Positions 5,834-31,922 of a stretch of DNA of 64,000 bases are shown here, one piece after another. Every line of letters begins with the position of its first letter. Positions within the stretch are counted from its first letter, which is position 1. Source of the stretch: Escherichia phage PHB12; sequence record MK524178.1; one strand, written 5' to 3'. The notes beneath the pieces are model-generated. The model worked only from the letters and a program-made list of their open reading frames with translations. It ran no database searches and had not been told where the DNA came from. The position numbers were made by a program, and so were the translations under genes.

Positions 5834-5895
5834 AATATTTTCCTCTCGTTAAGATAGAAAGATTATACTCCAACCATCCTTGGTTGTAAACTGAT

Positions 5896-6825
5896 TTATG
5901 ATTTTAATGCATTCATTGCATTAAAAAGTTTAGAGTATTGCAACTGGAGTTTGGTAACTACTTGTTGAGCATCACGAAGCTTAGCTTGTGCTTTGTCAAG
6001 TTCAACAGACAGTTGGTCCACAGTGGCTTTGATTTGATTATAATAGTAATCTTCGGCAGGAAGAAGACCGTTAGAGATTTCCAGTTTAGTCGACGGTGTG
6101 CCGTTAAACATAACAGGTTGTGCTGAAGCTGCATTAATCTTACCGATAGTCGGGGCGACAATAATTGACGCTTCGAACGTTGCATTTTCCTTTTTAAGAT
6201 TTTGATAGTATTCAGAGTCTTTGTGCCACCATGGCGCAGGAACCTTTTTACCAATAGATACACGAGCCTGGATAGCGATATGGCCCTTATTCTTGATAAC
6301 GTCGATAATATTAAGCTCACGAGAATAAATTGCTTTAATCTGGTGGATATTATCACCTAACACTTCCAACGCTTGGTGGAATACACGAGCAACGTTATCA
6401 TTCTTAGGTTTATACGTAAGAGTGAACTCGTTCTCACTGATAACCATGATTTCTAACTTATCGTAAGTATATTTCAAATGTTTCATGTTAATTGCTTGAG
6501 GACGAATACGAGAAGCAATGGCCATCAGATTGTTAAGGTTATTCCGGAACTGCTTAGCGAAATATTGTCCTTCACCGCCAATACAAAAATTACGAAGTTT
6601 CTGTTTGGCTAATAAACGGCTGAACTCACCATTTTTAATGAACTCTTTAACGGGTGTGTTAGTAACGCATTCAAATTGAGTAAACTTACGAGAAGTAATC
6701 CCATAATATGAACAGATTTCCTCAATCTCTTCAGGAGTCTTTACAGGCATACGGATAGGATTAGGACCTGGGGTATATGCGTTAGAGGTAAATTCTTTGA
6801 TAAGTTCTCTACGTGTAATAGCCAT
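5896..6825 (-). CDS. hypothetical protein with C-terminal coiled coil, 309 aa
   Basis: ORF track; own upstream promoter cassette; possibly a distant paralog of the 316-aa neighbour (shared YYY patch). Confidence 0.6.
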   Translation of the reverse strand: MAITRRELIKEFTSNAYTPGPNPIRMPVKTPEEIEEICSYYGITSRKFTQFECVTNTPVKEFIKNGEFSRLLAKQKLRNFCIGGEGQYFAKQFRNNLNNLMAIASRIRPQAINMKHLKYTYDKLEIMVISENEFTLTYKPKNDNVARVFHQALEVLGDNIHQIKAIYSRELNIIDVIKNKGHIAIQARVSIGKKVPAPWWHKDSEYYQNLKKENATFEASIIVAPTIGKINAASAQPVMFNGTPSTKLEISNGLLPAEDYYYNQIKATVDQLSVELDKAQAKLRDAQQVVTKLQLQYSKLFNAMNALKS

Positions 6826-6880
6826 TTTATATTCCTCATGTTGAAAAATTTATTATACTCCAACCATCCTTGGTTGTACA

Positions 6881-7876
6881 TCATTCCTTAAGAAGTTTTA
6901 CTACTTGAATAAGATTAGCTCGTTCTGTTTTATTTTTACTGTTTAAGCCTGCTAATCGTGAGATTTCATCATCAGTCTGTTGAATAGTTACATTAAGTTC
7001 GCTAATCAAAGCTTCAAAGTATTTGATTTGCTCAGCATGTTTTGATTCAAATTTCTGAACCGGAATAACGTCCTGGTTTAGTTCATCAATAAGGTCTTTA
7101 AGAGCATCTTCTTGATTGATATCATATTCAACTTCTTTTATTTCTTCAACGAGCTCGTCTTTATATCTAACGTCTTTTAGTCCTGGTGATGGTCCTGAAA
7201 TCTCTTCTTTAAGAGTACAAACATATCCAATACGGTATCCAATGCCGTCTCGCTTGATATCAACTTCGTCAATAAATCCACAATGTTTAAGACCAGAGCC
7301 GATTAGGTCAAAATATCCTTGACGTCGTCCTTCAAACGTTACACGAACTACTAAGACAGTTTTACCTGCAACCTTTTGAAGCTCACATTTATAAAAGTCT
7401 GTTGAACCTGAATAACGTGGATGAGTTTTAAAGTTCATCTGACGATCTAGGCCCATTTGTAAGCGTGCTGATACGGCCATAAAACGTGTTTGGTTCTCGT
7501 TAAGATGAGCAACAATCCATTTCAAAGGCATTTTACACTGTTCACGACCGAACAAATCAGTACGTCCTAGATTACGCAGGATGTTGTTAGAGTTAATCAT
7601 CGACAGAACGTTAAGTTTATTCAGCGCGCTGAAGATTCCATCGGCCATTGATTTTCCGTAACCTTTACACGCTTTAATAAGCGCTCGCGGTAGATTAGTA
7701 TAAATTTCAGACGGCATATGAAAATCAAATTTACTAGTCAGTAATTGATGAACTTGGATAGCAATTTGCTCATAATTAAGTGCTCTGCGATCATTATGGT
7801 CTTTAAACCACACTTTAATCTGTGAAGCACATAAACCGTTAATTTCATGTTTTACCGCATCAGATGTAATGCTCAT
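6881..7876 (-). CDS. hypothetical protein with C-terminal coiled coil, 331 aa
   Basis: ORF track; acidic linker followed by a coiled-coil tail. Confidence 0.6.
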   Translation of the reverse strand: MSITSDAVKHEINGLCASQIKVWFKDHNDRRALNYEQIAIQVHQLLTSKFDFHMPSEIYTNLPRALIKACKGYGKSMADGIFSALNKLNVLSMINSNNILRNLGRTDLFGREQCKMPLKWIVAHLNENQTRFMAVSARLQMGLDRQMNFKTHPRYSGSTDFYKCELQKVAGKTVLVVRVTFEGRRQGYFDLIGSGLKHCGFIDEVDIKRDGIGYRIGYVCTLKEEISGPSPGLKDVRYKDELVEEIKEVEYDINQEDALKDLIDELNQDVIPVQKFESKHAEQIKYFEALISELNVTIQQTDDEISRLAGLNSKNKTERANLIQVVKLLKE

Positions 7877-7938
7877 AACTATTTCCTCAGATTGAATTGG
7901 AACTCAAAACCATTATAACCCGTCCTTGGGTAAAGCGT

Positions 7939-8466
7939 TTATGCGTGAACCGTCTTTAAACGTTCTTCAAATTTCCGAAGAGTACTAATACGTTCTGCTT
8001 TCTGTTTTGTATAGTTTGCAATACGTTCTGAAGTGAGAGCGTATCGTTCGTTTACTGTTTCTTTCATGAAGTCAGGGATTTCACGAGAAGCTTTAATTTC
8101 ATCAAACTTATCGAGTACTGCCTGGTCTTCAGCGATTAAATTTTCGTACATCTCGATATCTTTCTTGATAAACTCGATATCTTCCTGGGTTACTTTGGAT
8201 AAACGAGATGCTTTATCCTTTTTGTACTGCTCGTTAGTTTCACGAGACCAGAATAATGTACGTTTTTTGTTAGTGTTTTTGTAGACTTCCACAATTCCAA
8301 CTGAATCGATGATAGCAATCCAATTCCAGTGAGATTTGAAAATCTGACCTCCGTCCACGGTAATCTCGTTACCATAAGCAACGTCATTAAAGAACTTGCT
8401 TTGTGCTTCAGATTTAAATTTACCGTCGTTATAATTTACCAGGTTGAAAATATCTTTAGCGTTCAT
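7939..8466 (-). CDS. hypothetical protein, 175 aa
   Basis: ORF track; charged helical C-terminal half. Confidence 0.55.
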   Translation of the reverse strand: MNAKDIFNLVNYNDGKFKSEAQSKFFNDVAYGNEITVDGGQIFKSHWNWIAIIDSVGIVEVYKNTNKKRTLFWSRETNEQYKKDKASRLSKVTQEDIEFIKKDIEMYENLIAEDQAVLDKFDEIKASREIPDFMKETVNERYALTSERIANYTKQKAERISTLRKFEERLKTVHA

Positions 8467-8484
8467 GTTTTACCTCCAGTAGTT

Positions 8485-8522
8485 GATAGGTCTATAATAA
8501 CATAACCATAGACCTTGTAAAC
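8485..8522 (-). promoter_or_regulatory. early promoter with embedded palindrome (PeSL-type cassette)
   Basis: Minus-sense GTTTAC, 17-nt spacer, TATTAT; inverted repeat GGTCTAT/ATAGACC spans the -10 region. Confidence 0.6.
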
Positions 8523-8524
8523 AA

Positions 8525-8866
8525 CTAAAAGAAACTTTTTTCGGTATTTTTTCCACTGAACCAAGCGGATTGGGTAGTATTTTTCCGTTGGTGTTCGATA
8601 CGAATGCGATATTCATTCCTGATGGCGCAGAGTTCACCTCGGAAGTCGCCTGCCAACTTTACCTGCTTTCGGTCTAGATTTATTAAGGCCTGAGTCTTCG
8701 CGGCCAAGAGCAGTCTCTTGTAGTCTCCTTCTTCACAATCGGTTTTATAAACTCTATTGGTATATCCGTTGATAACTTCTTTATCATAGTCCTCGACGGA
8801 TTGTTTCATAGCTTTGGAAAAAGTCTGACCTGCGTTATAAAGATTGTAAATAAATTGTTCAAACAT
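8525..8866 (-). CDS. hypothetical protein, 113 aa
   Basis: ORF track. Confidence 0.5.
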   Translation of the reverse strand: MFEQFIYNLYNAGQTFSKAMKQSVEDYDKEVINGYTNRVYKTDCEEGDYKRLLLAAKTQALINLDRKQVKLAGDFRGELCAIRNEYRIRIEHQRKNTTQSAWFSGKNTEKSFF

Positions 8867-8876
8867 AATTTCACCT

Positions 8877-9878
8877 TTATTTCAGAAGTGTAACTTCAGA
8901 GATTTCCTCCCAACCGTCTTTATCAGTTGAAATAAAATCTGCTACATAAAGAGCCGTACGTAATGATACATTGCGAAGACGAGATACGTTAGCCTTCATC
9001 CAGGACAATGCTTTATACGTTTCTGCATCTGTCAGACCACGTTTCTGCATCATGTCAGTAGATAATATTACATCTTCAACTCGAACCATAATCTCTTCAT
9101 TAGAGTGTACTCCAAGGTCGAGATACACTGAACGAGATACTAAAGCTTGAAGGTGCGGGGCAAGCTTCGAACCGCGTTCTAACTCTTTATCGATATCAAC
9201 GTTTGTAATGAAAACGATAGTACCTTCAAACACAAATTCTTTATCAATACCCTTATCATCGAGATAAGACGACGCAGTGCTCCAGCAAACTTTGCGTTTA
9301 TCTCCAGTATCTAATGCTGCTTTAAGAAGGTTCAAGATGTCCATATCCGAGAATACGTCAACGTCGTCGATTAAGAGAACGCTGTCTGCATCACGGTTGA
9401 GCCAAAGTTGTTCGTAAAGGCCTATACCAGAGATTTTACCATTAATGCTTTTGTATTTGATGAAACCGTTATCATTAGCATTATTAAGCGCTTTATCCAG
9501 AGAATACGTCTTACCAATACCTGCTGCACCTGAAATAATGAGTGAACGAATTTTGCCATCGATAATGCCATTCGTCATCATGTTCATTACTTTAAAGCGT
9601 TTGTTGATACGAGTTTTCATATCTTCACTGCTTTCAACAACTGCAACTGGTGATGTCTCAGCTCCTTCCATTACGATGTCTGATTTGAAGACCCATACTC
9701 CACGTTCAGAACCATCAATCATAACGAAAATTTTACCATCACCTAAGTGGGAACATTCAGGATTAAGCTTTGCCGGGAACCATGTCTTTGTGGCAACATA
9801 AGAACCAGAGATTTCGTTATTACGATAGATACCTTTTTTGATTTGAACGTTGAACATTTTATTCTCCAATTTACTCAT
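8877..9878 (-). CDS. P-loop ATPase (AAA+-like core) with a 100-aa N-terminal extension, 333 aa
   Basis: Walker A ISGAAGIGKTYS, Walker B VLLIDDVD, sensor-1-like VFITNVD. Confidence 0.7.
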   Translation of the reverse strand: MSKLENKMFNVQIKKGIYRNNEISGSYVATKTWFPAKLNPECSHLGDGKIFVMIDGSERGVWVFKSDIVMEGAETSPVAVVESSEDMKTRINKRFKVMNMMTNGIIDGKIRSLIISGAAGIGKTYSLDKALNNANDNGFIKYKSINGKISGIGLYEQLWLNRDADSVLLIDDVDVFSDMDILNLLKAALDTGDKRKVCWSTASSYLDDKGIDKEFVFEGTIVFITNVDIDKELERGSKLAPHLQALVSRSVYLDLGVHSNEEIMVRVEDVILSTDMMQKRGLTDAETYKALSWMKANVSRLRNVSLRTALYVADFISTDKDGWEEISEVTLLK

Positions 9879-9926
9879 TTCGTTTCGATAGGTCTATAAT
9901 AACATGTTTAAAGCAAAAGTAAACAA

Positions 9927-10145
9927 TTATTTGCGACGAGATTTTTTGGTAAGAGGTTGAAAGAACACTGCTTTACCTGCAGGAGTCAAAGTAACTCGTA
10001 ATGCATTACCGATTCCCAAGGATGCTTTAACAAGACCTTTAGATTTCAGTTCACCGAATGCTTGACGTTGGTCTGCATCACGAGTGTTAACCATAAGACC
10101 TTTATCACCAGCTTCACGAATCATTTCTAACATTTTGGTTTTCAT
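9927..10145 (-). CDS. small winged-helix-like protein (about 72 aa from the internal ATG)
   Basis: Internal ATG preceded by SD GAGGAG; helix-turn-helix-like MLEMIREAGDKGLMVNTRDADQRQAFGELKSKGLV. Confidence 0.5.
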   Translation of the reverse strand: MKTKMLEMIREAGDKGLMVNTRDADQRQAFGELKSKGLVKASLGIGNALRVTLTPAGKAVFFQPLTKKSRRK

Positions 10146-10230
10146 TTTGTTCTCCTCTTGTTTTGATAGGTCTATAATAACATATCCTAAAAGCATGTAC
10201 ACCACTTTTTAAAAATATTTTGACCCCCTA

Positions 10231-10248
10231 AAGGGCCCGAAGGCCCTT
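10231..10248 (-). terminator. GC-rich hairpin just downstream of the nucleotidyltransferase gene
   Basis: AAGGGCC-cgaa-GGCCCTT perfect 7-bp stem with tetraloop, followed by a U-containing tract on the minus transcript. Confidence 0.5.
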
Positions 10249-10249
10249 A

Positions 10250-11239
10250 TCATTTATAGTACGAATTGTGGTTTTCTAAGTAGACTTGCTCAAGGAAATC
10301 ATCCCAGAAACTCATATCTACTTTTTGTTGCATACCGTTCTTGGCAGCTTGTTCTGATGCTTGTTCAACTTTGTCAACGATATCTTCTAGGAATTCTTGT
10401 ACAGTTTTAAACGTATGTTTACCAAGCTTAACATCTAGAATAAATGGAGCATCCCGAAGTGGGTAAACCAGGTCGCCGGTTTTATAAATTTCTAATAGTT
10501 GAAGTCCACCACGACATGCATGACTCAATGCTTTCCAGTCAATACCTTCGTTAGCTTCTGCCTTACGAGCACGTTCGCCATAGTTCTCTTCCAGTTTAAC
10601 CAGGATGGCATTGAACTCTTTATTGGTTAATGTGTCTTGGAATTTACGGTCTAACAGATTATAGAACGTTTGCTTACCTGTTTTCTCGTTTTCGGTTTCA
10701 ACCCACGAAGCAAATTCACCTACGGGCAGAACATTCTTCATATGTGATAAACGAATTACTGCACCATTATCAAAGTATTGTCCCCATTCGTTAGAACGTT
10801 TAAGGGCTTGTCGAAGAACAGCCAGTCGAGAACCCTTGACACCATATTTAGAAGCTTGCTTACGGACATACCCTAAATAAGATTTCATGTTAGTAGTATA
10901 GAAACGAGACCTGTTGTCTTGAATATACTTCCACACGTCAGGCAAATCAGATTTAACTACTAGACTTTGCGGAGTGTGAAGCATATCTAATGCGACAGTT
11001 TCACCATCCATAGCTAGTTTAAAGAAATATTTGAGACTATACAACTCGTGGTCCACGTCGTCTTTTGTGTTCTTAGAAGATGTGTTATTCGTGTTCTTGC
11101 TCATGTGTTCTTTAACGTTACCAGTCAAGATATCACGAGCATGAGGGACATAAATTTCTTTAAAATCGACGTCAGATTCAGGAGTAGACGTTCCATAAAG
11201 GTGACTACCAAAGTAGCCTTTCATAATTGTTTTCATCAT
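10250..11239 (-). CDS. Pol-beta-superfamily nucleotidyltransferase, 329 aa
   Basis: N-terminal GS-x9-SDVDF motif (YFGSHLYGTSTPESDVDF) typical of minimal nucleotidyltransferases. Confidence 0.65.
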   Translation of the reverse strand: MMKTIMKGYFGSHLYGTSTPESDVDFKEIYVPHARDILTGNVKEHMSKNTNNTSSKNTKDDVDHELYSLKYFFKLAMDGETVALDMLHTPQSLVVKSDLPDVWKYIQDNRSRFYTTNMKSYLGYVRKQASKYGVKGSRLAVLRQALKRSNEWGQYFDNGAVIRLSHMKNVLPVGEFASWVETENEKTGKQTFYNLLDRKFQDTLTNKEFNAILVKLEENYGERARKAEANEGIDWKALSHACRGGLQLLEIYKTGDLVYPLRDAPFILDVKLGKHTFKTVQEFLEDIVDKVEQASEQAAKNGMQQKVDMSFWDDFLEQVYLENHNSYYK

Positions 11240-11709: not shown

Positions 11710-11718
11710 AATAATTCC

Positions 11719-12249: not shown

Positions 12250-12250
12250 A

Positions 12251-12432: not shown

Positions 12433-12594
12433 TACCATACTCGTTTCAATAAGATTCACTATGCCGTTTACCATGTTATAAGTAAACATCGGATAATTGT
12501 ATTGTACTACAACATAAGCGATAAGCAAAAGTTTCATTTTGTTCTCCATTTGTTTTGGTAGGATTACTATATCATAGTCCTACCAAGACGTAAA

Positions 12595-12801
12595 CTACCG
12601 ATTGTGTTTTAAATGTTGATAAAGCTCTTCAACTTGTTTAGGGTCCAAAACAATTAAGTCATTTTCTTGGCGAAGATAAATCCATCCCTTATCCCCAGGA
12701 CCATTTTTACAAAACATCACCACCGTATCATCATCTTCAGCGCTTTCAGGTAAAAGTTCAAGTACACCGTCTTCAGATTTTCCAGTATAATCGTAAAGCA
12801 T
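12595..12801 (-). CDS. hypothetical small acidic protein (about 68 aa)
   Basis: ORF track frame; ATG at 12801 preceded by SD GAGGT. Confidence 0.5.
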   Translation of the reverse strand: MLYDYTGKSEDGVLELLPESAEDDDTVVMFCKNGPGDKGWIYLRQENDLIVLDPKQVEELYQHLKHNR

Positions 12802-12808
12802 AATGACC

Positions 12809-12988
12809 TCACATAATCTCGTTAACATACATTTGCAATTCGGTGTGGGCAGATGCCATCTTTTTCATTGCCTTATTGATATCGATATCACCGTCTTCAC
12901 ACCCGTGGGCATTTTCCCAATCGGATACAGCGTTAGCGTACTCTTCAATCAAAAACATTAACTTAGAAATTTTTTCTTTACGTGACAT
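12809..12988 (-). CDS. hypothetical small protein (about 59 aa)
   Basis: ATG at 12988 preceded by SD GAGGAG and an early-promoter cassette. Confidence 0.5.
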   Translation of the reverse strand: MSRKEKISKLMFLIEEYANAVSDWENAHGCEDGDIDINKAMKKMASAHTELQMYVNEIM

Positions 12989-13060
12989 AACGTTCTCCTC
13001 TAGTAAGTAAGGTCTACTATAACACAACCTGAGGAGAAGTAAACTGCTAAATGCAAAAAA

Positions 13061-13086
13061 AGCCCCAACCTTTCGGAAGGGGCTTT
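13061..13086 (-). terminator. hairpin terminator (copy 1 of a 28-nt direct repeat)
   Basis: AGCCCC...GGGGCT stem with U-tract on the minus transcript (and a T-tract on plus). Confidence 0.55.
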
Positions 13087-13088: not shown

Positions 13089-13646
13089 TTAGTTTTTGTA
13101 ATATCGTAAAGGGTTGATATGGAATGAAAGCATTGCGCGTGGAATAGGACGACTCAAAAGACTCTTAAGTTTCCAACCACAATAAACACGCAGATAAAAT
13201 GTAATACCACCAACCTTAAGATAAGGTATAGCAGCGAATAATCCCCATGCAGACTCGTTCCAAACTAAAAGATATCCATGATGTGCCGGATCAGGAGATC
13301 CAGATTTAGTTTCGGCGTTGCCTTTATAGTGCCATTCTGATGAAGCTTCGCGACCTAAAACATGATACGAAAAATTATATGCTTTGTTGCGCCATAGCCA
13401 AGCTACGCGTTGAGCATATTTACCTATAACAGGAATTTTACGTATTTTAGACCAACGTTCAACATGGCCGCGGTCACCATCGATAGGATTATCGTAAGTC
13501 ATCATCCAGTCAAAGCCATAAGGTAGTTTACCGGTTTTTTCACTATGGAATGGAACTACAAATGGTGCTAGAATAATTGCTAAAATCGCTGCGATCCAAT
13601 CTATAGGAACAAGAACAACCCAACTTATATATTTTAAAAATTTCAT
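13089..13646 (-). CDS. membrane-anchored protein at the rI.-1 position, 185 aa
   Basis: N-terminal TM segment; minus-sense TATAAATA (late promoter consensus) and SD GAGAGGA immediately upstream. Confidence 0.6.
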   Translation of the reverse strand: MKFLKYISWVVLVPIDWIAAILAIILAPFVVPFHSEKTGKLPYGFDWMMTYDNPIDGDRGHVERWSKIRKIPVIGKYAQRVAWLWRNKAYNFSYHVLGREASSEWHYKGNAETKSGSPDPAHHGYLLVWNESAWGLFAAIPYLKVGGITFYLRVYCGWKLKSLLSRPIPRAMLSFHINPLRYYKN

Positions 13647-13683
13647 ATATCCTCTCTTAGTTTACAAGGATATTTATACAAAA

Positions 13684-13706
13684 AGCCCCAACCTTTCGGA
13701 AGGGGC
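13684..13706 (-). terminator. hairpin terminator downstream of rI (copy 2 of the 28-nt repeat)
   Basis: Same CAAAAAGCCCCAACCTTTCGGAAGGGGC sequence as at 13055-13082. Confidence 0.55.
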
Positions 13707-16782: not shown

Positions 16783-17241
16783 CTAGATTTTAATCACTGC
16801 TTTAGAAGCTTTTCCTGGTAGTCGTTTATTGTTAATAATAGCCATTCTGCATTGAAGAGTCTTCATTTTGAATGCTGGATTTTCACGACAAACTGTAAGT
16901 CCTAACCAAAGATTTCCATCAGTTATTTCTAAACGGCCTGGGCGATATTCGACACCTTCGACAAAATCTTCATCAACATCTGGACGGGCCGGCATTGATA
17001 AAAATTCTGCAACTTCTTTAACATGATTTTTTACTTTACGAAATAATTCAAAAACGTAGTTCTCATCTATTTCTCTCTGGATGGCACGATCTAAGAGATG
17101 TTGAGAATACTTGATATGAAAGCCTGGTAGTCCAAGAGACTTTGCAGCATCTTTTATACCGGCATTTATTTTGCGGAACTCCGTTTCAAAGATTCGACGG
17201 AGTTTATTACGGCGGATAAAAACGTCTGAATTGATAGTCAT
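16783..17241 (-). CDS. regB: RegB site-specific endoribonuclease
   Basis: 152 aa; MTINSDVFIRRNKLRR...LQCRMAIINNKRLPGKASKAVIKI closely matches T4 RegB as recalled. Confidence 0.9.
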   Translation of the reverse strand: MTINSDVFIRRNKLRRIFETEFRKINAGIKDAAKSLGLPGFHIKYSQHLLDRAIQREIDENYVFELFRKVKNHVKEVAEFLSMPARPDVDEDFVEGVEYRPGRLEITDGNLWLGLTVCRENPAFKMKTLQCRMAIINNKRLPGKASKAVIKI

Positions 17242-17302
17242 TTTGATTTCTCCTCTAGTTGACAGGTCTATAGTAACACAACTAGAGGAGAAGTAAACTA
17301 CT

Positions 17303-19211: not shown

Positions 19212-19484
19212 TTAGTTTCTCTTTTAGGTTGGGCTGTTCCGTGGCACATGAATTGTCCATTTCTGTATTTACCCATTACCGCACTTGGGCTCGACCTTAT
19301 TACAGGTTGGCGGGAATCCCTCATAGAATCATGAGGTCCAGGTTGTTCCCATGTTATTTGAATGTAAATATTTTTGCCTTAATACTTATACCAGTGTGGC
19401 TTCATTAAAATTTTTTCATCGAGTCATTTTACCTCTCCAAGTAATTATGAATATACTATCACAATTTTAGGAGAAAGTAAACTG

Positions 19485-19828: not shown

Positions 19829-20407
19829 TTAATTACCACGGGCTGCATTAGCAACGGCATAAGCGTACTGAACATTAGCGTCTTTAAACGTACCTTTAGA
19901 GGTGTCTATTTCTGCCTTAAAGCCGCCTTTAGCCATAACATCGGCAAATTCTTTACGGAAGGCCATTGCATCAAGACCCTTCCATGATGATTTATGCTTG
20001 GCAAATTCAAGACCTGCGAAGTTGACAGCTTTAGCCAATTTATTATCAATGACCCATTTACCGGCTTTAGGCACAAACTTCGGGCCTTTTTGTTTAGAGA
20101 ACAGTTTTAAATTCCAGCGACGAAGATCACTGTCGGCTTTAACAAAAGCTGCGTCTAAGTTACTAGCAACAACATCTTCAATATGAGCAAATTTAAGTCC
20201 GTCAACTTCAATATTTAGATCGTTACGCCAGCGAAGTCCTTCCCAAGCGAAGGCTTTAAAATCAGAAGCTTTTGTGGCTAGATATCGTTCAAGTGGAGCA
20301 GTTTTAGGGTCGAAGCCGTTTCCACCACGATAAGTCCACTCGTCCTTATTAATGCCTTGAGCTTTTCCTGCAAAGGCCTCGGCGATAAATTCTTTATATG
20401 TTTTCAT
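19829..20407 (-). CDS. internal protein (IPIII-like), 192 aa
   Basis: Begins MKTYKEFIAEA; length close to T4 IPIII. Confidence 0.7.
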   Translation of the reverse strand: MKTYKEFIAEAFAGKAQGINKDEWTYRGGNGFDPKTAPLERYLATKASDFKAFAWEGLRWRNDLNIEVDGLKFAHIEDVVASNLDAAFVKADSDLRRWNLKLFSKQKGPKFVPKAGKWVIDNKLAKAVNFAGLEFAKHKSSWKGLDAMAFRKEFADVMAKGGFKAEIDTSKGTFKDANVQYAYAVANAARGN

Positions 20408-20470
20408 TTTTGTTTCCTTGTTTGTTTTGATAGAGTAATTATACCATATTAATACTTAAGCGTAAACTGT

Positions 20471-20739: not shown

Positions 20740-21153
20740 TTAGTAAATTGATTTACCATAGTATTTGTACCAAGTCGGACGTTGAGCAATTTTTTCATCT
20801 AAGCGTGCTTGACTTATCGCAATGGACGCTTCGGACGGGACGTAATTATTACGAAATTCTACAGGAATGTCGGAAATATCCTGGACTGTCGTGTCCTTGA
20901 TTTTGAAACCACGTTTCAAACATTCGGTGATTAGCTCGATTTGACGTAAACGTAAAAATTCGAGTTTGTCGTAAAAGAATGTTACGTGACCTGTGCCTAA
21001 GATAAATGTTGGAGAGATTTTAAAATCTTTTACACGTTTACCGTTTTGAACATGTTTACGGACTGCACCAAATACGCGTGGTAATTCACGATACTCAGCC
21101 ATAAGATGTTGGTCGGTCAGTTCGGAAACGAGTGTTAAATTGATACGAGTCAT
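20740..21153 (-). CDS. denV: endonuclease V (pyrimidine-dimer DNA glycosylase)
   Basis: [12 protein letters not shown]...[10 protein letters not shown] closely matches T4 DenV as recalled; start refined to the internal ATG. Confidence 0.92.
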
Positions 21154-21211
21154 AATTTCCTCCAAGTAGTTGATGAATGTATAGTATCAAAGTCCTTGGA
21201 GGAAGTAAACA

Positions 21212-21493: not shown

Positions 21494-21978
21494 ATATACG
21501 CTTTCCAAGTTCCTGTTTTAAATGTTGAGATTACGCGTTTCGCGCGATTAGGTGTCTGACGATACCATTTAGATTGGGCTAGATTTACTGCCGCTTCGTC
21601 CCAACGTTTCTGTTGAAGCATACGAAGAGAATTAGTAAAACCAGCGACGCCTGCTACACCCATTTGGAAGACCATATTGACCAATGCACATCGACGAACT
21701 GCATCTAAAGAATCATATACCGGTTTAAGTTTAGCATTACCCAAGATTCCGCGAACGGCTTTATCAACGTCTTCATTAAATAGCTTTTCAGCCTCATCAA
21801 GGGTAATTGTACCGTTGCATTTACGTCCGATCATTCTGTCAAGTTCAGCTTTAGCTACGGCTAAAGACGGGTTCTTTGTTACTAAATGGCCTATGCCAAT
21901 CGTCCAAAAGCCTTCAGTGTCTTTGTATAAAGACAGTCTAAGACCTTCGTCATTACGAAGCATTTCAAATATATTCAT
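21490..21978 (-). CDS. e: lysozyme (endolysin)
   Basis: [15 protein letters not shown]...[12 protein letters not shown] closely matches T4 lysozyme as recalled; SD sits in a hairpin (ATACCTCC/GGAGGTAT) at 21980-22005. Confidence 0.93.
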
Positions 21979-22012
21979 AATACCTCCCACGTTTATAGGA
22001 GGTATTTATTAC

Positions 22013-22471
22013 TTATAAGAGGGTAGTGAGCACCTTATATAATGATTTGCCCATTACATATTCCCATTGAGAAGGTTTAATTAAAGCGAATGCATCAAAT
22101 TCAGGAATCTGTCGTCCATCCGGGAACGTATGATAGGAATTACAAACACTGTTTCTGAATTGCTCGTGCTCTACAGGGATGGTATATAAGAACAGATGAA
22201 TATTCTTATTGTCTGAGTAATGATGTTCACCTAGGTCTTTCAGGAAGGCAGGGTCATATTGTGTAAACCCAGTTTCTTCTTCGCATTCACGAATAGCGGC
22301 TTCGATAGGAGATTCACCGGGCTCGACACGACCTTTAGGAATATCCCACCGATGAGCTAATGCACCTTTAGGACGAGAACCAGTTACACGGCCCATGAAT
22401 AACTCTTTATCTTCGGTAAGGAAAATAATACCGGCTGATAGTTCTTTCACTTTATTTTTCTTACTCATCAT
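22013..22471 (-). CDS. nudE: Nudix hydrolase
   Basis: Nudix box GRVEPGESPIEAAIRECEEETGF. Confidence 0.85.
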   Translation of the reverse strand: MMSKKNKVKELSAGIIFLTEDKELFMGRVTGSRPKGALAHRWDIPKGRVEPGESPIEAAIRECEEETGFTQYDPAFLKDLGEHHYSDNKNIHLFLYTIPVEHEQFRNSVCNSYHTFPDGRQIPEFDAFALIKPSQWEYVMGKSLYKVLTTLL

Positions 22472-23860: not shown

Positions 23861-24166
23861 TTATTTTCCTCGACATTCTTTAATGAAATTTTCTAGATTG
23901 GTAGATTCAATAGCTTTTTTACGAGCTTCTGCGTGTTCTTCTTCGGACAATTTACATTTATAATTGACCCAGACATTATGGTCGAAACTAGTCGTAGCAT
24001 ATAATAACAATGCTCCAACGAATAGCAAAAACGGCGATAAGAATACAAAACCAGGAACACCATCCATATCGTAAGCCTTTTGTAATACTGCAACAGAAAG
24101 GGCTGCGTAAAAAGGTGATGCAAATATTGTTAAAAGACCAATTCGGTTGGTTTCGCCTAATTTCAT
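23861..24166 (-). CDS. two-TM membrane protein with C-terminal ENFIKECR tail, 101 aa
   Basis: Hydrophobic helices LLTIFASPFYAALSVAVL and FVFLSPFLLFVGALLLY. Confidence 0.55.
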   Translation of the reverse strand: MKLGETNRIGLLTIFASPFYAALSVAVLQKAYDMDGVPGFVFLSPFLLFVGALLLYATTSFDHNVWVNYKCKLSEEEHAEARKKAIESTNLENFIKECRGK

Positions 24167-24185
24167 AATATTCTCCTCATGTTTT

Positions 24186-24226
24186 AATAGGACTACTATA
24201 ACATAGTCCCTATAATTGTGTAAACA
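24186..24226 (-). promoter_or_regulatory. early promoter with palindrome (PeSL-type cassette)
   Basis: Minus-sense GTTTAC; inverted repeat TAGGACTA/TAGTCC over the -10 region. Confidence 0.55.
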
Positions 24227-25222: not shown

Positions 25223-25462
25223 TTAAATTTCACGACATGCGATATCATATTCATCCCAGAGGTCATCGTGTGAAGCCTCTACTAATGGAACGATTGTACC
25301 ATTTATGTCTTCATTATAAGGGCAAATTGTACAGTGCGCATCTTCGAATCGGATGCCTTTGTGTTCAGATTTTTTATAACGCATATCGAATATCTTTGCA
25401 AACTTTTCACGAGTAATGGTTTTAGCAACCACTTTGGTTCCAATACTTTCATAATAAATCAT
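25223..25462 (-). CDS. small Cys/His-containing protein, 79 aa
   Basis: ORF track; HCTICPY motif. Confidence 0.5.
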   Translation of the reverse strand: MIYYESIGTKVVAKTITREKFAKIFDMRYKKSEHKGIRFEDAHCTICPYNEDINGTIVPLVEASHDDLWDEYDIACREI

Positions 25463-25480
25463 TGTGGACTCCGTTTAATT

Positions 25481-25521
25481 TGATAGGACTACTATAACAT
25501 AGCCCTATCTTGTTGTAAACT
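25481..25521 (-). promoter_or_regulatory. early promoter with palindrome (PeSL-type cassette)
   Basis: Minus-sense GTTTAC plus near-copy of the TAGGACTACTATAACATAG element. Confidence 0.55.
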
Positions 25522-25524
25522 GTT

Positions 25525-25722: not shown

Positions 25723-25731
25723 ATGGTTTCC

Positions 25732-26004: not shown

Positions 26005-26013
26005 AATGATTCC

Positions 26014-26319: not shown

Positions 26320-26675
26320 TTTCTACATTCCTTAATAAAGTTTTCTATTGTTTCATTTTCACGTCTAGCTAGGAGTTCATTATAACTAATCATTTGAGAA
26401 GCGTAAACTTTTTTATTTTTCTTGTTATGGTTTATAAAATCGTAGTAAAAATAGACTACAGTACAAAAGGATGCGATGGATGCAAAGGCTTGGGTATACC
26501 GTAAGTCCTGCCATTGGTCTGTGAATCCACCAGAGTTCCCTATAAATCCTAACACAACGCCGTCAATAAGAAATCCAACTAATCCAAAGGCAAATCCCAT
26601 GCCAATACTCATAATAAAAATTAGAATGTTCTCACCAAGAGAAGGCCATACGGTTAAGAGTTGAGGCTTTTGCAT
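26316..26675 (-). CDS. membrane protein with C-terminal ENFIKECR tail, 119 aa
   Basis: Hydrophobic segments ILIFIMSIGMGFAFGLVGFLIDGVVLGFI and FASIASFCTVVYFYY. Confidence 0.55.
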   Translation of the reverse strand: MQKPQLLTVWPSLGENILIFIMSIGMGFAFGLVGFLIDGVVLGFIGNSGGFTDQWQDLRYTQAFASIASFCTVVYFYYDFINHNKKNKKVYASQMISYNELLARRENETIENFIKECRK

Positions 26676-27079: not shown

Positions 27080-27635
27080 GGATTAAATTGTTAGTGAAAT
27101 TAGGACTAACAACCATAGTTTCATAAAGCGCATCAATAGCACTTAAAGCATCAACTCTTTTAAGCAAAGGCTTGCCTTCATACATAGTTTCAGAATCGAC
27201 GATTAACGTAAAGTAGTATTTTTTATTATCGACTAGAACTTCTGTATCGATATAAAACATATTAGACCTCAGAAGCTTATCTCTAAAACCATAATAATCT
27301 TCAGAGCGTTCGCTGATATATTCCAATTCAGTGTTTAAACAACAAACAGACCACGTAGGAGCAACGAAATCAGTGAATCTAATATCATGGTCTGCAACTA
27401 GTTTAGCAATAGCTCCGATATCATTAATCATGATACCTGGGGCTAATAAAGATTTTCGGTTATTTGCATATTCAGTTGTCTCATAAGAAGCTGACCAGTA
27501 CCATTTACGTCCGGTTGCAACATATCGTAATGAATCGACTAAAGACGTAGGTGGATTTACCTTATCTCGGAACTCTTCGAACATTGAGTCAATATCATTA
27601 TTTTGGTTTCGCATGTTAACTCCTTTATTATCCAA
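27018..27635 (-). CDS. soluble protein carrying an EQFIMECR motif near its C-terminus, 205 aa
   Basis: ORF track; probable start at the internal ATG (MRNQNN). Confidence 0.5.
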   Translation of the reverse strand: MDNKGVNMRNQNNDIDSMFEEFRDKVNPPTSLVDSLRYVATGRKWYWSASYETTEYANNRKSLLAPGIMINDIGAIAKLVADHDIRFTDFVAPTWSVCCLNTELEYISERSEDYYGFRDKLLRSNMFYIDTEVLVDNKKYYFTLIVDSETMYEGKPLLKRVDALSAIDALYETMVVSPNFTNNLILEQFIMECREYVKANPIHAN

Positions 27636-27663
27636 AAGGAGGACCGGAGTCCTCCGTATTATT

Positions 27664-28272
27664 TTATTTCAAAGAGTTAATATATTCTTGTACATCAGCA
27701 GAAGTGGTTTCGACACCGGCTGGAGTGCCGTTGAACGTTTCAACACGAGTCAGAGTGTCTTCGATATCAACCTTAGTCAGTGCAGCAATTTCAATCACAT
27801 CATCAGCCGTAGAGATACCAAGAGCATTGGCTGCTCGAGTTTCACGAATGTATTCGAGTTTGATTGCCAGATTCTGACGAGCGTCATCAAGTTCAACCAC
27901 CTTACGAGCAATTTCAATTCGCATAGCGGCGTACCCGTCAGCTTTTGTATTAAGTTGTTCGGCAGTTCGACGATACAGAAGACCAAGCTTAGCATGCATG
28001 GTAACATCTTGTCCTTCAGCCAAGAGCTTACGAATTTCACGTTCCTTAGAAGCGGCTTGCTTGTTCTTTTCATTAACAAGTTCGCGAATACGTTTTTCTT
28101 CATTAATAGATTTAATAGAAGCCGTTTTTAGTTCTTTGATTTGGGTAATCAACTTATCTGCAGCTGCGTTATACTGTTCTTCGACAGTCAGATTTTTAGC
28201 CATAGCAGTACCCAGTTTAGTGCGGATGAATTCAACAAGTTTCTTCAGTGTGTTCATATTATTACCTTTCAA
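27664..28272 (-). CDS. coiled-coil protein, possibly PspA/IM30-like, 202 aa
   Basis: Heptad-rich and charged throughout, with the length and composition of PspA-family proteins; no motif-level proof. Confidence 0.45.
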
Positions 28273-28327
28273 TTGGTGGTTTATTATCCAATGAGAGCAT
28301 TATACTCTGCTCTCAAGAGTTTGTAAA

Positions 28328-28555
28328 TTATTTTTTAATCAAATTGACATAAAATTCTGCATCTTCAGGGTGCATGCCTTCGCAGTATTCTTCAACCATG
28401 AACTTCTTAACAGCTTCATAAGGGCCACTCAGATTAAGCTTGGTTGTCCAGAACTTGGAATCTTGGGCTGAATCGATACGAACTTCAGGGTGACGGTTGC
28501 GAATAACTTCTTCAGTGTATTCATAATCAACGACATCAATACTAACTGTAGCCAT
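28328..28555 (-). CDS. small acidic protein, 75 aa
   Basis: ORF track. Confidence 0.5.
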   Translation of the reverse strand: MATVSIDVVDYEYTEEVIRNRHPEVRIDSAQDSKFWTTKLNLSGPYEAVKKFMVEEYCEGMHPEDAEFYVNLIKK

Positions 28556-28601
28556 TTTGTTTTCCTCTTGATTTGATGTGATTACTATAACATAAACTTA
28601 C

Positions 28602-28766
28602 TTAGATGTAAATTATTTCAACGTCACCTTTAGCTGCTTTATAACCTTCAGCCCAAGATACAACAGAGTTTTTATCCGAGGATTCAAATTCAGGCATTGG
28701 ACTTTCACCGATATTCACACAGTATGTTTCTTCATTTTCATCGAACCAAATAATTAAAGTAGTCAT
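28602..28766 (-). CDS. small ORF, 54 aa, below the ORF-track cutoff
   Basis: Manual translation MTTLIIWFDENEETYCVNIGESPMPEFESSDKNSVVSWAEGYKAAKGDVEIIYI; SD GAGGAG and a promoter cassette upstream. Confidence 0.45.
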   Translation of the reverse strand: MTTLIIWFDENEETYCVNIGESPMPEFESSDKNSVVSWAEGYKAAKGDVEIIYI

Positions 28767-28937
28767 TTTGTTTACTCCTCTGTAGTTGATAAGTCTATAG
28801 TATCATGTCCTTAGAAGAAGTAAACATCTTTATGAAATATTTTTATGCCCTAGATACCAAAAGGCCCCAACCATAAGGAAGGGGCTAAGCCTTGCGGCAA
28901 CCTTGTCGGGGTTCCACCTGCTAAGGCAAGTGTTTGT

Positions 28938-29095: not shown

Positions 29096-29197
29096 GCTGT
29101 GATGTAAGGGGATATTAACGAATCATAAAGATTTATTAAGACCAGTCCTTACACAGGGAACATCAGTCCGACGACTTGCCGGTAGCGACCCGGCTTC

Positions 29198-29542: not shown

Positions 29543-29560
29543 ATTTTCCTCACTTAAAAT

Positions 29561-29637
<77 letters not shown>

Positions 29638-29643
29638 AATATA

Positions 29644-29717
29644 TGACCCAGACCAGATTCGAACTGGTAACCTTTCCCTTATGAGGGGACTGCTGCTAAC
29701 CGTTGAGCTACAGGGCC
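29644..29717 (-). tRNA. tRNA with anticodon CAT (Ile-lysidine or Met type)
   Basis: T-arm ACCAG-TTCGAAT-CTGGT and anticodon loop CTCATAA; acceptor and D stems each carry one mismatch in my hand fold. Confidence 0.5.
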
Positions 29718-29796
29718 TAAATAACTTTCTATTATGAAAGGCACTTTAGAGCACCTTTGGTAATAGAGGGTATGAATTAATAATAACACATAATTC

Positions 29797-30312: not shown

Positions 30313-30316
30313 TTAA

Positions 30317-30607
30317 TCACCATACCATATTAATGTAAGTATACTCAATACATTCAAGATTTAAAGGATTCTTGAAAATATCATATTCAAGAGGGCCTTT
30401 TTCTGTTTCAATAAAGAAATCAAAGTTAACTGTGTTAAATTTATCGTCTTCGCAGAGTAATTTAACCTGTGAAGACGAACGGTCGATATAAACCTTTTCA
30501 ACCTCAAAGTTAGTCAGAATACCGTAGTCATCGACTAGTGCTTTAGCTGCACGTTGGTCGCTTTCATATCCATTCTCAACGGATTTTACCTTAGCATAAA
30601 GAATCAT
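30317..30607 (-). CDS. hypothetical protein, 96 aa
   Basis: ORF track. Confidence 0.5.
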   Translation of the reverse strand: MILYAKVKSVENGYESDQRAAKALVDDYGILTNFEVEKVYIDRSSSQVKLLCEDDKFNTVNFDFFIETEKGPLEYDIFKNPLNLECIEYTYINMVW

Positions 30608-30984
30608 GAATGTTCCACCACTTCAAAGGTATGAGCATCAACAATATGGTACCAGTCAAAATTTTCTTCTGCGTTTTTATAAATTTCGCGAAGAGCTTCA
30701 ACAGTTTTTCCTGTAGCAACAAGATCATCAATACCACCAAGAGGATAACAGTCATAACCAGCAAACAGAAGGAAATTAATAGTTTCTGTAGGTTCTGGAT
30801 GCAGAACACCGTTATCATCTACCACTTCAAAGAAAGTGTAAGAAGGAGTACAAGTTTTAATCCAAGCCCATGCTTGAGCCGCTGAATCAAATGGTCTGCG
30901 TATCAAACGACAATCCGGGTCTTTAGAAGGATTTGCTTCAAAATCCGCATATACGTGATATTTCATTTTACTCACCTTTTGCAA
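30604..30984 (-). CDS. hypothetical protein, 126 aa
   Basis: ORF track; likely start MKYHVYADF. Confidence 0.5.
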   Translation of the reverse strand: MQKVSKMKYHVYADFEANPSKDPDCRLIRRPFDSAAQAWAWIKTCTPSYTFFEVVDDNGVLHPEPTETINFLLFAGYDCYPLGGIDDLVATGKTVEALREIYKNAEENFDWYHIVDAHTFEVVEHS

Positions 30985-31165
30985 TTTTATCCATAACGAT
31001 AGCGATTAAGCCGATTAGAAATGCTACTACCAATGAGATAGAGTTTTCGGTTGTTGTCAGTAGTCCACAAATGAATCCTACAAACATCGAAAAACTAAAA
31101 GCCATTGAAGCAATTACTACAGCAACATTACGAATCAGTTCAGCGCGTTTCATTTTATTCTCCAT
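30968..31165 (-). CDS. small two-TM membrane protein, 65 aa
   Basis: Hydrophobic segments VAVVIASMAFSFSMFVGFICGLL and LVVAFLIGLIAIVM. Confidence 0.5.
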   Translation of the reverse strand: MENKMKRAELIRNVAVVIASMAFSFSMFVGFICGLLTTTENSISLVVAFLIGLIAIVMDKIAKGE

Positions 31166-31180
31166 TTACTCATTTGTTTT

Positions 31181-31219
31181 GATAGGACTACTATAACATA
31201 GTCCTATAGGCTTGTATAC
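31181..31219 (-). promoter_or_regulatory. early promoter with palindrome (PeSL-type cassette, copy A)
   Basis: TTGATAGGACTACTATAACATAGTCCTAT element with a GTATAC -35-like hexamer. Confidence 0.55.
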
Positions 31220-31221
31220 CT

Positions 31222-31485
31222 TTATTTCAAATATATTGCGTATTTTTTATAGCCACCAGGCTCGTGTCGAAGACCTTTATCATTCGCAAAACGTTGAATG
31301 TTATTGAACTGGTTTTCATCAAGTTCGGATGTGTCAAATACGAAAAAGTTTCGTTTGTTACCAAGCGTGATATGCGGAGTTAAGTCAATGTTATACAAAT
31401 TAAGAATATCAGCAATAACCTGATTAACCGCTTTGTTAATTTTCACACCAGATGATTCTGAGATGAATTCGTTGAAAGTTTTCAT
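31222..31485 (-). CDS. internal-protein-like protein (about 87 aa)
   Basis: From the internal ATG begins MKTFNEFISES. Confidence 0.6.
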   Translation of the reverse strand: MKTFNEFISESSGVKINKAVNQVIADILNLYNIDLTPHITLGNKRNFFVFDTSELDENQFNNIQRFANDKGLRHEPGGYKKYAIYLK

Positions 31486-31506
31486 TTTAGGTTCCATTTG
31501 GTTGTT

Positions 31507-31547
31507 TTGATAGGACTACTATAACATAGTCCTATCATGTTGTAAAT
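31507..31547 (-). promoter_or_regulatory. early promoter with palindrome (PeSL-type cassette, copy B)
   Basis: Same TTGATAGGACTACTATAACATAGTCCTAT element as at 31178; -35-like GTAAAT on plus. Confidence 0.55.
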
Positions 31548-31858
31548 TATTTTATGCCTTTAGAAGAAATGGTATTTTGGCGTTTGACCCCTGTTTGTGA
31601 AAAATCGTGGTTATCGATTTGGTCAACTCGCATAACACCAAATGCGGATTTAATTTTGGCTTTTGAACCTTTTTTGATACTAATTACCATATAAGTATCA
31701 TTTTTCTTATATTCGAAATTTGTTACTTCAACGCCTTGATTAGAAATTGACTTAATAATAGCATTAGCGTATTCATCATCTAACGGACCGTTAGTGTTAA
31801 TAATAAAATTTTTATCCGCTTTAGTAGCTTCCGCGATGAATTCTTGATAGGTTTTCAT
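31547..31858 (-). CDS. internal protein (IPI position), 103 aa
   Basis: Begins MKTYQEFIAEA; lies immediately before 57B as ipI does in T4. Confidence 0.65.
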   Translation of the reverse strand: MKTYQEFIAEATKADKNFIINTNGPLDDEYANAIIKSISNQGVEVTNFEYKKNDTYMVISIKKGSKAKIKSAFGVMRVDQIDNHDFSQTGVKRQNTISSKGIK

Positions 31859-31884
31859 TTTATTTCCTTGAGGTTGTTTATTTG

Positions 31885-31922
31885 ATAGGATGATAGTAAC
31901 ACACCATCATCCTTATGTAAAC
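31885..31922 (-). promoter_or_regulatory. early promoter with palindrome upstream of 57B
   Basis: Minus-sense GTTTAC, 17-nt spacer, TACTAT; inverted repeat AGGATGAT/ATCATCCT. Confidence 0.55.

Follow-up and report, generated by a model that had tools for sequence, protein, structure and literature searches.

What do the stem-loops built into the early promoters of T4-type phages do? We took up this question in a stretch of 64,000 nucleotides from Escherichia phage PHB12 (sequence record MK524178.1), here called the window and numbered from its first letter, in which an earlier note had pointed to repeated promoter-plus-palindrome cassettes on the minus strand at 5850-31922. T4-type phages of the Mosigvirus (RB69-like) group, for example SF and phiE142, share 95-98% identity with the window over long stretches, and judged by this identity the phage behind it is itself an RB69-like (Mosigvirus) T4-type phage. 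The minus strand carries the genes from 1 to about 36,000, and comparison with the annotated SF and T4 records identifies their order as that of the early, hyperplastic nrdC - tk - vs - regB - denV - ipII - e - nudE - tRNA - ipI - 57B region. Composite elements of the kind described in the note are known as promoter early stem-loops (PeSLs); by definition they combine an AT-rich region and a sigma70-like early promoter with a stem-loop and with a Shine-Dalgarno (SD) sequence and ATG, the stem lying mostly between the promoter boxes or overlapping the -10 (Arbiol et al, 2010, PMC2839356).

The analysis presented below makes it probable, in our view, that the cassettes are strong early promoters whose hairpin acts in RNA that reads through from upstream, and that they serve in addition as substrates for recombination.

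Early promoters of the T4 type

The exact pattern GTTTAC-N16-18-TATAAT occurs four times, against 0.04 occurrences expected. A relaxed scan anchored to gene starts yielded 18 promoter cassettes, and with the addition of one that has a 19-nt spacer (24225) and one that has a weak -35 (6881) the total came to 20 on the minus strand in 4851-31922, 19 of them within 5850-31922. The promoters that the earlier note had placed in minus-strand gaps, with a GTTTAC-like -35, a spacer of about 17 nt and a TATAAT-like -10, are therefore real features of the sequence. They stand in front of only about a quarter of the approximately 75 minus-strand genes and in about half of the true intergenic gaps, not before most accessory genes as had been claimed. 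The T4-specific form of the motif is what is enriched; a scan of this AT-rich DNA with a generic sigma70 consensus gave no enrichment (69 vs 65).

The cassettes share a compact anatomy. The -35 is GTTTAC with at most one change (two in the weak copy at 6881), the spacer measures 17-19 nt, the -10 has the form TAnnnT, and a TGn (extended -10) is present in 16 of the 20. Positions -60 to -37 contain 72% A+T, compared with 62% for the window. Past the -10 a conserved leader (AGACCTATCAAAACAA or ...CAACTAC type) leads to a GGAG-type SD, and the ATG stands 26-38 nt from the -10. Sigma70 geometry and homology to T4 early promoters predict that these are active promoters and where they would start, and orthology to T4 promoters such as that of regB suggests that unmodified host sigma70 RNA polymerase would initiate at them right after infection.

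Two further observations concern the promoters themselves. Within the leader (+1 to +12) the first approximately 10 transcribed bases (ATCAAAACAA or ATCAACTAC) are strongly conserved in all cassettes, irrespective of stems; promoter escape, 5'-end stability and recognition by S1/RegB are possible reasons. In addition, a perfect GTTTAC-N18-TATAAT is found at 26379-26408 (minus strand) inside a coding region, where it coincides exactly with one end of an indel of about 250 bp relative to a related locus (L048).

Stems in the cassettes of the window

The summed best-stem score of 18 cassettes was 146.5, compared with 102.5 +/- 4.5 in 1000 shuffles that preserved the -10 and the composition of each segment (maximum 116.5), and 11 of the 18 tested cassettes were individually beyond their shuffles (p<0.05). 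RNA folding agreed, with z at or below about -2 (<= -1.9) in 10-11 of 19 cassettes and energies of -12.6 to -21.6 kcal/mol. About 11-12 cassettes contain a real inverted repeat. Five (28613, 20467, 10202, 9924 and 4911; each cassette is named by its upstream end) have no stem and are plain early promoters. The earlier count of at least 15 gaps with both promoter and inverted repeat consequently holds for the promoters, 19 of which lie in its range, but not for the repeats.

Three arrangements of the arms were distinguished in the window and a fourth in relatives. In class A the 5' arm lies in the spacer and the 3' arm directly past the -10, leaving the -10 in the loop, as in ATAGGACTA-tgttatag-TAGTCCTAT and in cassettes 31922, 28328, 12595 and 8522; the 3' arm of these stems ends near +1, 15-30 nt short of the ATG, and does not reach the SD. 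In class B an anti-SD (TTCTCCTC..., TTCCTCC...) immediately behind the -35 serves as 5' arm and the SD of the gene itself as 3' arm, with the -10 and the predicted start site held in a loop of 17-31 nt; the examples are regB at 17298 (14 bp), denV at 21210 (10 bp), 13044 (8 bp) and, weaker, 28825. Class C is a small hairpin within the spacer (5891, 6881). In class D, seen in relatives, the 5' arm begins at the end of the -10 and the 3' arm spans the SD up to the ATG. The overlap with the -10 that was originally described does not extend to all stems: five cassettes (17298, 21210, 13044, 28825 and, in part, 19482) have their arms on either side of the entire -10/start region, with the SD as 3' arm, and in two the hairpin sits in the spacer.

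The individual stems quoted in the earlier note are all present: GGTCTAT/ATAGACC at 8488-8515, TAGGACTA/TAGTCCTA at four sites, AGGATGAT/ATCATCCT at 31887-31913 and GGTAGGA/TCCTACC at 12555-12586. So are the two exact and two near-exact copies of a 30-nt version, at 31178-31207 and 31506-31535 (exact), 25479-25508 (1 mismatch) and about 24189-24220 (1-nt insertion). The cassettes are as follows; L005, L006, L047, L048 and L049 are labels of relatives' loci that were compared with the window.

31856-31922, minus strand: before the internal-protein-like gene 31547-31858; -35 at 31917-31922, -10 at 31893-31898; class A, arms 31902-31913 and 31887-31898, core AGGATGAT/ATCATCCT, -10 in the loop or stem top; p=0.003, -16.8 kcal/mol, z -3.9; deletion end-point in L047 and L049
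31483-31547, minus strand: before an internal-protein gene (ATG 31485); class A TGATAGGACTAT/GTAGTCCTATCA, arms 31526-31537 and 31508-31519; -17.8 kcal/mol, z -4.95; contains the exact 30-nt copy 31506-31535
31151-31219, minus strand: before a 61-aa gene (ATG 31153); class A ATAGGACTAT/GTAGTCCTAT, arms 31198-31207 and 31182-31191; exact 30-nt copy 31178-31207; recombination end-point in L047, L049 and L006
28764-28825, minus strand: before a 54-aa gene (ATG 28766); weak class B TTCTTCT/AGAGGAG (2 G·T) pairing the bases after the -35 with the SD; stem score alone not significant, -14.5 kcal/mol, z -3.1; adjoins a module replaced in SF and L048
28553-28613, minus strand: before a 75-aa gene (ATG 28555); promoter without a stem (p=1.0, z +0.9); breakpoint 28577 inside
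28270-28328, minus strand: before a 202-aa gene; class A TGAGAGCA/TGCTCTCA, arms 28308-28315 and 28292-28299, TATAAT -10 in the loop; p=0.017, z -3.5; orthologues have different stems at the same place (GGGAAC/GTTCCC, GAGGAC/GTCCTC, GTGTAGGAG/CTCCTACAC)
25460-25520, minus strand: before a 79-aa gene; class A GATAGGGCTAT/GTAGTCCTATC with G·T wobbles; -17.1 kcal/mol, z -3.9; near-exact 30-nt copy 25479-25508
24164-24225, minus strand: before a 101-aa gene; 19-nt spacer; class A GGGACTAT/GTAGTCCT; z -2.1; fourth 30-nt copy, with the 1-nt insertion
21151-21210, minus strand: before denV (endonuclease V); class B, 5' arm TTCCTCCAAG at 21195-21204 directly past the -35, 3' arm CTTGGAGGAA at 21157-21166 being the SD; -10 and predicted start in a 28-nt loop; p=0.001, -17.8 kcal/mol, z -5.2
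20405-20467, minus strand: before a 192-aa gene; perfect GTTTAC/TATAAT, no stem (p=0.96, z -0.5)
19437-19482, minus strand: promoter with stem AATTGTGA/TCATAATT around the -10 (p=0.04), followed by an SD and a 3-codon mini-ORF
17239-17298, minus strand: before regB (endoribonuclease); class B 14-bp helix, TTCTCCTCTAGTTG at 17279-17292 with CAACTAGAGGAGAA at 17248-17261, covering the SD; -10 (17270-17275) and predicted start in the loop; p=0, -21.6 kcal/mol, z -4.9
12986-13044, minus strand: before a 59-aa gene; class B TTCTCCTC/GAGGAGAA, arms 13031-13038 and 12993-13000; p=0.049; canonical terminator just upstream
12535-12595, minus strand: before a 36-aa gene; class A TTGGTAGGA/TCCTACCAA, arms 12578-12586 and 12555-12563; p=0.004, -15.7 kcal/mol, z -3.6
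10143-10202, minus strand: before a 72-aa gene; no significant stem; canonical terminator just upstream
9855-9924, minus strand: before a 326-aa gene; 3' arm-like AGACCTAT retained, 5' partner absent, no stem (z +0.9)
8464-8522, minus strand: before a 175-aa gene; class A AGGTCTATGGT/ATTATAGACCT, arms 8505-8515 and 8488-8498; p=0.003; in T4-like orthologues its place is taken by a class B helix, CTGTTCCTC/GAGGAACAG
6823-6881, minus strand: weak -35 ATGTAC; small spacer hairpin AACCA-agga-TGGTT
5831-5891, minus strand: before a 316-aa gene; perfect GTTTAC/TATAAT; spacer hairpin AACCA/TGGTT as at 6881
4851-4911, minus strand: perfect hexamers, no stem; just beyond the range of the earlier note

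The region downstream of the 19482 promoter (19428-19482, minus strand) has a strong SD and the mini-ORF ATG ACT CGA TGA (ORF, open reading frame), then about 200 nt without a long ORF before the next gene. The mini-ORF could be a leader peptide or the remnant of a deleted gene.

Base pairing is under selection

The stems were then considered across T4-like phages in 1.77 Mb of sequence, made up of 84 viral-contig loci (tk, 57B and modA with their surroundings, about 20 kb each) and the T4 and SF records. Cassettes in these relatives were defined by hexamers, spacing, SD and ORF only, the stem being no criterion. This gave a non-redundant set of 267, later enlarged to 354 (89 T4-like sources); de-duplication reduced kinship among the cassettes, and the statistics were calculated without a phylogenetic model. 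Perfect stems of at least 8 bp were present in 28% of the 267 cassettes compared with 2% in shuffles, and 45% of the 354 had a folding z below -2. Among 99 stems of at least 7 bp, 48 were class A, 24 class B and about 10 class D; class B or D makes up about 30% of the strong stems.

The arm sequences proved highly diverse, with more than 40 unrelated stems, even before orthologous genes. The regB orthologues, for example, retain a class B helix with unrelated extensions (TCTAGTTG, TCTTTATG, TGTAAG, ATTTG, TTTTAGT, TCTTG and others), those of denV alternate between classes B and D, and other genes alternate between A and B. An alignment of 15 regB cassettes with MAFFT and RNAalifold returned no structure, the arms of unequal length having been misaligned, and tests anchored on CTCC/GGAG or on the -10 hexamer were therefore used instead. 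In class B the helix runs 4.25 bp past the CTCC/GGAG anchors, compared with 1.01 +/- 0.29 bp with permuted partners (maximum 2.2 in 2000 permutations). In class A, complementarity of at least 8 bp to the cassette's own partner was seen in 18%, compared with 0.8% with permuted partners. The same signal was found in an unselected alignment of 59 cassettes picked solely by having TATAGT as -10, anchored on the -10 and read in one fixed register: 65% of cells were paired compared with 57.2% in shuffles, and the covariation score was 0.307 compared with 0.207 (0/500 shuffles reached either value), slid registers giving 0.08-0.17.

A direct example comes from two near-identical loci. At 31182-31207 the window has ATAGGACTA/TAGTCCTAT and L047, in which the 61-aa protein encoded downstream is identical, has GTAGGACTA/TAGTCCTAC; this is a double compensatory change from ATAGG...CCTAT to GTAGG...CCTAC. 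Taken together, the enrichment, the covariation and the compensatory change indicate that the pairing is under selection. The remark that the palindromes vary between copies while the stem is kept is borne out in class A, in class B and in the unselected TATAGT set.

Hairpins predicted to form in read-through RNA

In every class the 5' arm would lie upstream of the transcription start, which established promoter geometry predicts 6-8 nt past the -10. If so, the hairpin can form only in RNA that enters the cassette from an upstream promoter. The consequence would be most direct where the 3' arm is the SD. Across the phages, 28 strong stems (8 bp or more) include the SD while beginning, with their 5' arm, ahead of the predicted start; 1.1 would be expected. 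In read-through RNA the SDs of regB and denV are folded into helices of 14 bp and 10 bp, respectively, whereas RNA from the predicted own start is essentially unstructured (regB -2.5, denV -2.1 kcal/mol) and leaves the SD free.

The region contains a known case of a promoter inside such a hairpin. Gene e (lysozyme) retains its SD-sequestering hairpin AUACCUCCUAUAAACGUGGGAGGUAU at 21978-22015 (minus strand), the 5' arm of which is overlapped by the late-promoter-like AATAAATA. The 71-nt segment folds with -18.8 kcal/mol (z -2.9) and serves as an internal positive control for the design.

Three lines of evidence favour sense-strand RNA over DNA as the form in which the stems would act. Firstly, single mismatches within otherwise perfect stems were G·T in 14 cases and A·C in 4 (binomial p=0.015; chance background about 0.8 each). 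Secondly, the excess folding stability over shuffles was greater for the sense strand (-4.37 kcal/mol) than for the antisense (-3.58 kcal/mol; Wilcoxon p=8e-7, 354 cassettes). Thirdly, an embedded stem of at least 7 bp was found in 4/30 cassettes (13%) with a canonical terminator (GC-rich, followed by a T-run) up to 90 nt upstream, which is about background, compared with 125/324 (39%) of those without one (Fisher p=0.005). The rarity of stems below a terminator suggests that the hairpin is dispensable when nothing reads through.

These results suggest a model in which a hairpin is built into a strong promoter for host sigma70, complete with UP region, -35, TGn and -10, that is followed by a leader of about 25 nt and a GGAG SD. 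The hairpin would act in RNA, and only on transcripts entering from an upstream promoter, the cassette's own transcript being without the 5' arm. In classes B and D, read-through RNA would be poorly translated, as the 3' arm is the gene's SD, and would probably be shielded from RegB cleavage at GGAG; RNA from the cassette's own promoter would have a free SD. Such an arrangement would mean that regB, denV and three small ORFs are made essentially only while their own early promoter fires, the reverse of the arrangement known from the T4 genes e, soc, 49 and I-TevI with their late-promoter hairpins. In class A the hairpin, on the most economical account, is most likely a weak attenuator, a 3'-end hairpin for the upstream message, or both, and it occupies the sole positions that such a compact promoter leaves free. 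The role of class A is the least certain part of the model. Finally, the 30-60 nt of near-identical sequence common to the cassettes would allow homologous recombination to delete, insert or swap the genes between them.

Several points weigh against this interpretation. The promoter activity and start sites, the occurrence and levels of read-through and the translational effect, like the role of class A, are deduced from sequence and from promoter geometry. Class A comprises the majority of stems, and for these a mechanism is only proposed. About 40% of the cassettes in the window and more than half of those across the phages contain no stem, so the hairpin is evidently optional. A looser measure, which required of the minimum-free-energy fold only that at least 3 bases of the SD pair with any bases ahead of the start, was not enriched (139 vs 136 +/- 9), and the proposed SD sequestration accordingly concerns strong helices only. 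The G·T and A·C counts are small and not significant per class (A 7:2, B/D 4:0). Lastly, terminator-like activity was demonstrated for one RB49/phi1 stem in the work that defined PeSLs (PMC2839356), a result that fits an attenuator at least as well.

More tentatively, it is possible that the stems of T-even-type PeSLs amount to a general code for read-through insulation rather than to terminators. Ahead of its own start, every strong early promoter would then contain one half, the 5' one, of a hairpin able to form only in incoming read-through RNA, and genes whose SD takes part in the pairing (regB, denV and others, typically nucleases) would be translatable only from their own early promoter, and hence be early-only in spite of middle and late read-through.

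Other explanations for the stems

The alternative that survives best is that the stems terminate or attenuate incoming transcription, the function proposed by the authors who defined PeSLs. When a phi1/RB49 stem was placed between a promoter and lacZ, expression fell about as much as with rrnB T1 (PMC2839356), and the near mutual exclusion of embedded stems and upstream canonical terminators (13% vs 39%) is what would be expected of two elements doing the same job. However, no T-run or U-tract follows any stem; A/C-rich leaders of the ATCAAAACAA type follow instead, and a terminator scan picked up none of the stems. They are also AT-rich and 7-12 bp long, and the class B/D loops of 17-37 nt that end in the SD have a translational layout. 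Classical terminators with a GC-rich hairpin (tetraloop) and T-run do occur in the same region on the minus strand, at approximately 27618-27650 (GGAGGACtccgGTCCTCCtttt) and 10215-10250 (aagGGCCttcgGGCCctt), indicating that the phage uses canonical terminators where termination is needed. The missing U-tracts rule out a pure intrinsic terminator, and termination or attenuation as the general role of the stems seems doubtful to us.

Alternatively, the stems might be signals for RNA processing or stability: once RegB or RNase E has cut in the leader or SD, the upstream message would end in the hairpin and be shielded by it from exonucleases, or the downstream message would begin with it. The structure does appear to be strand-specific and at the RNA level, GGAG RegB sites lie 10-25 nt past the class A stems, and a stem would be unneeded where a terminator hairpin already ends the upstream message. 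This explanation leaves the inclusion of the SD in class B/D arms without a reason, and from sequence alone it looks the same as the attenuator idea. We regard it as unlikely.

The earlier note had also suggested that the stems could act as operators. Palindromes acting in double-stranded DNA might bind a dimeric regulator, such as a factor that shuts off early promoters, or extrude as cruciforms and so draw in enzymes of recombination or junction cutting. Their position, with the -10 at the centre, would suit a repressor; the mechanism of early-promoter shut-off lacks an explanation so far; and recombination end-points do fall inside cassettes. Yet the dozens of unrelated arms (more than 40 stem sequences), even before orthologous genes, exclude a sequence-specific binder, and a duplex or cruciform would be symmetric with respect to strand, unlike the observed excess of G·T over A·C and the better folding of the sense strand. 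Cruciform extrusion is poor when arms measure 7-12 bp and loops 6-30 nt, and at the DNA level there is no rationale for a dependence on the absence of an upstream terminator. Operator and cruciform were rejected on covariation and strand asymmetry, and any DNA-level role is very unlikely; one in RNA is favoured.

That the palindromes have no function, being by-products of conserved promoter sequence or of cassette copying, is scarcely credible: there are four near-identical paralogous copies in the window and cassettes do move by recombination, but partner permutations that keep the conserved motifs fail to reproduce the pairing, as does shuffling of the TATAGT alignment, and many distinct arms are all perfectly paired, with compensatory double changes between near-identical relatives.

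Cassettes as sites of recombination

The second part of our interpretation, that the cassettes are recombination substrates, rests on the alignment of the window to close relatives, which revealed 24 internal breakpoints. Half of them (12/24) lie within 50 nt of a cassette. The cassettes and this margin take in about 10% of the sequence and 27% of the gene junctions, which gives p=1.3e-6 and p=0.012, respectively. The comparison of cassettes with synteny breakpoints thereby bears out the link to modular gene shuffling that had been drawn from the sequence.

Indeed, several relatives have what appear to be the products of such events, with chimeric cassettes in L005, L006 and L047. In L005 the gene 9927-10145 is absent and a chimera of cassettes 10202 and 9924 stands in its place. 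In L047 and L049 both internal-protein genes between cassettes 31922 and 31219 are absent. Deletions between cassettes are the products that would be left by the excision of mini-circles through recombination of neighbouring cassettes, a property attributed to PeSLs. L006 has a chimeric cassette in which 24225 is joined to a 5' half matching the 31219 type. Finally, the module 28577-28854, bounded by two cassettes, is replaced in SF and L048.

Not every rearrangement uses cassettes. On either side of the 185-aa gene 13089-13646 stands one copy of a perfect 27-nt direct repeat (13057-13083 and 13680-13706; AAAAAGCCCCAACCTTTCGGAAGGGGC on the plus strand, a canonical terminator hairpin on the minus strand). 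Four close relatives have no such gene and keep a single copy of the repeat, which indicates gain or loss via terminators rather than promoter cassettes.

At the gathering score of Rfam 15, the sole matches in 1-36500 are two tRNA genes, at 29564-29637 and 29644-29717 (minus strand), the cassettes being unmatched. T4 has eight tRNAs and segB at the equivalent place.

Relation to known elements

The cassettes have every sequence-level feature by which PeSLs are defined and belong to a kind already known, as the earlier note had supposed. They share the composite layout of AT-rich region, early promoter, stem-loop, SD and ATG, and they match the T-even version of the element, TTTACW-N17-TAYWAT with AGNA-loop-TCNT stems (Comeau et al, 2014, PMC4122927), the AT-rich stems lying between the boxes or over the -10. 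As with PeSLs elsewhere, they are concentrated among small variable genes, including internal-protein (IP) genes, and lie at indel or replacement boundaries of close relatives, with chimeric cassettes. They also resemble forerunner elements at T-even IP loci that were reportedly described by Repoila and colleagues in 1994.

There are also differences. The published function of the stem is that of a terminator or attenuator, and the stems here have no U-tract. A sizeable subclass here pairs the bases after the -35 with the SD, an arrangement undescribed in PMC2839356 and PMC4122927, which do not mention translation. The PST figure legend puts stems just upstream of the promoter, whereas most arms here are inside or around it. 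Moreover, this genome is a Mosigvirus (RB69-like), outside the pairs analysed in the PeSL papers. The cassette as such is ordinary for a T4-like phage, and the analysis confirms that in RB69-like phages, too, accessory early genes are organised and shuffled by PeSLs. What our analysis adds is mechanistic: it refines the function of the stem and suggests a subclass that would hide the ribosome-binding site of nuclease genes (regB, denV) unless their own promoter transcribes them.

Intrinsic terminators are likewise intergenic RNA hairpins upstream of the next gene, and embedded stems and terminators tend to exclude each other. However, the stems here are AT-rich, have no U-tract and, in classes B and D, have long loops; a GC-rich stem with a U-tract is not what is found.

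The resemblance to T4 early promoters is close, with the GTTTAC -35, TGn in 16/20, a TAnnnT -10, AT-rich upstream sequence and the same genes served (regB, denV and the ip genes). The T4 GenBank and RefSeq records hold no promoter features, and so offer no curated T4 promoter positions for comparison; a genome-wide T4 map of start sites or 3' ends was not found in the literature. The extra conserved positions of these 'uber' UP/-35/TGn/-10 promoters have been credited to optimised contacts with RNA polymerase (Hinton, 2010, PMC2988021). In contrast, the covariation described here makes part of that extra information base-pairing of the spacer with segments after the -10 or with the SD. If our more general proposal is true, it would explain some of the additional conservation of T4 early promoters for which those contacts do not account.

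Classes B and D are most reminiscent of T4 e, soc, 49 and I-TevI, and also segB/mobE, in which a late promoter lies inside an SD-sequestering hairpin, no early-promoter example being given (Uzan & Miller, 2010, PMC3014915). In both cases an SD helix has its 5' strand upstream of an internal promoter, here provided that transcription starts 6-8 nt past the -10, and only transcripts from that promoter would be translatable. The internal promoter here is an early sigma70 promoter and not the late TATAAATA (gp55), so that by analogy expression would be restricted to the first minutes rather than delayed. The class B/D cassettes would work like T4 late-promoter hairpins but are no members of that family. 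Were the general proposal true, they would form an early-only counterpart to the classic late-only gating of T4 lysozyme. Should it be confirmed that the built-in hairpins act in read-through RNA and hide the ribosome-binding site in this subclass, the published 'promoter-terminator' view of PeSLs would have to be revised; T4 gene regulation would be seen to include a simple timing device, and phage engineering would gain a small, portable part for insulation.

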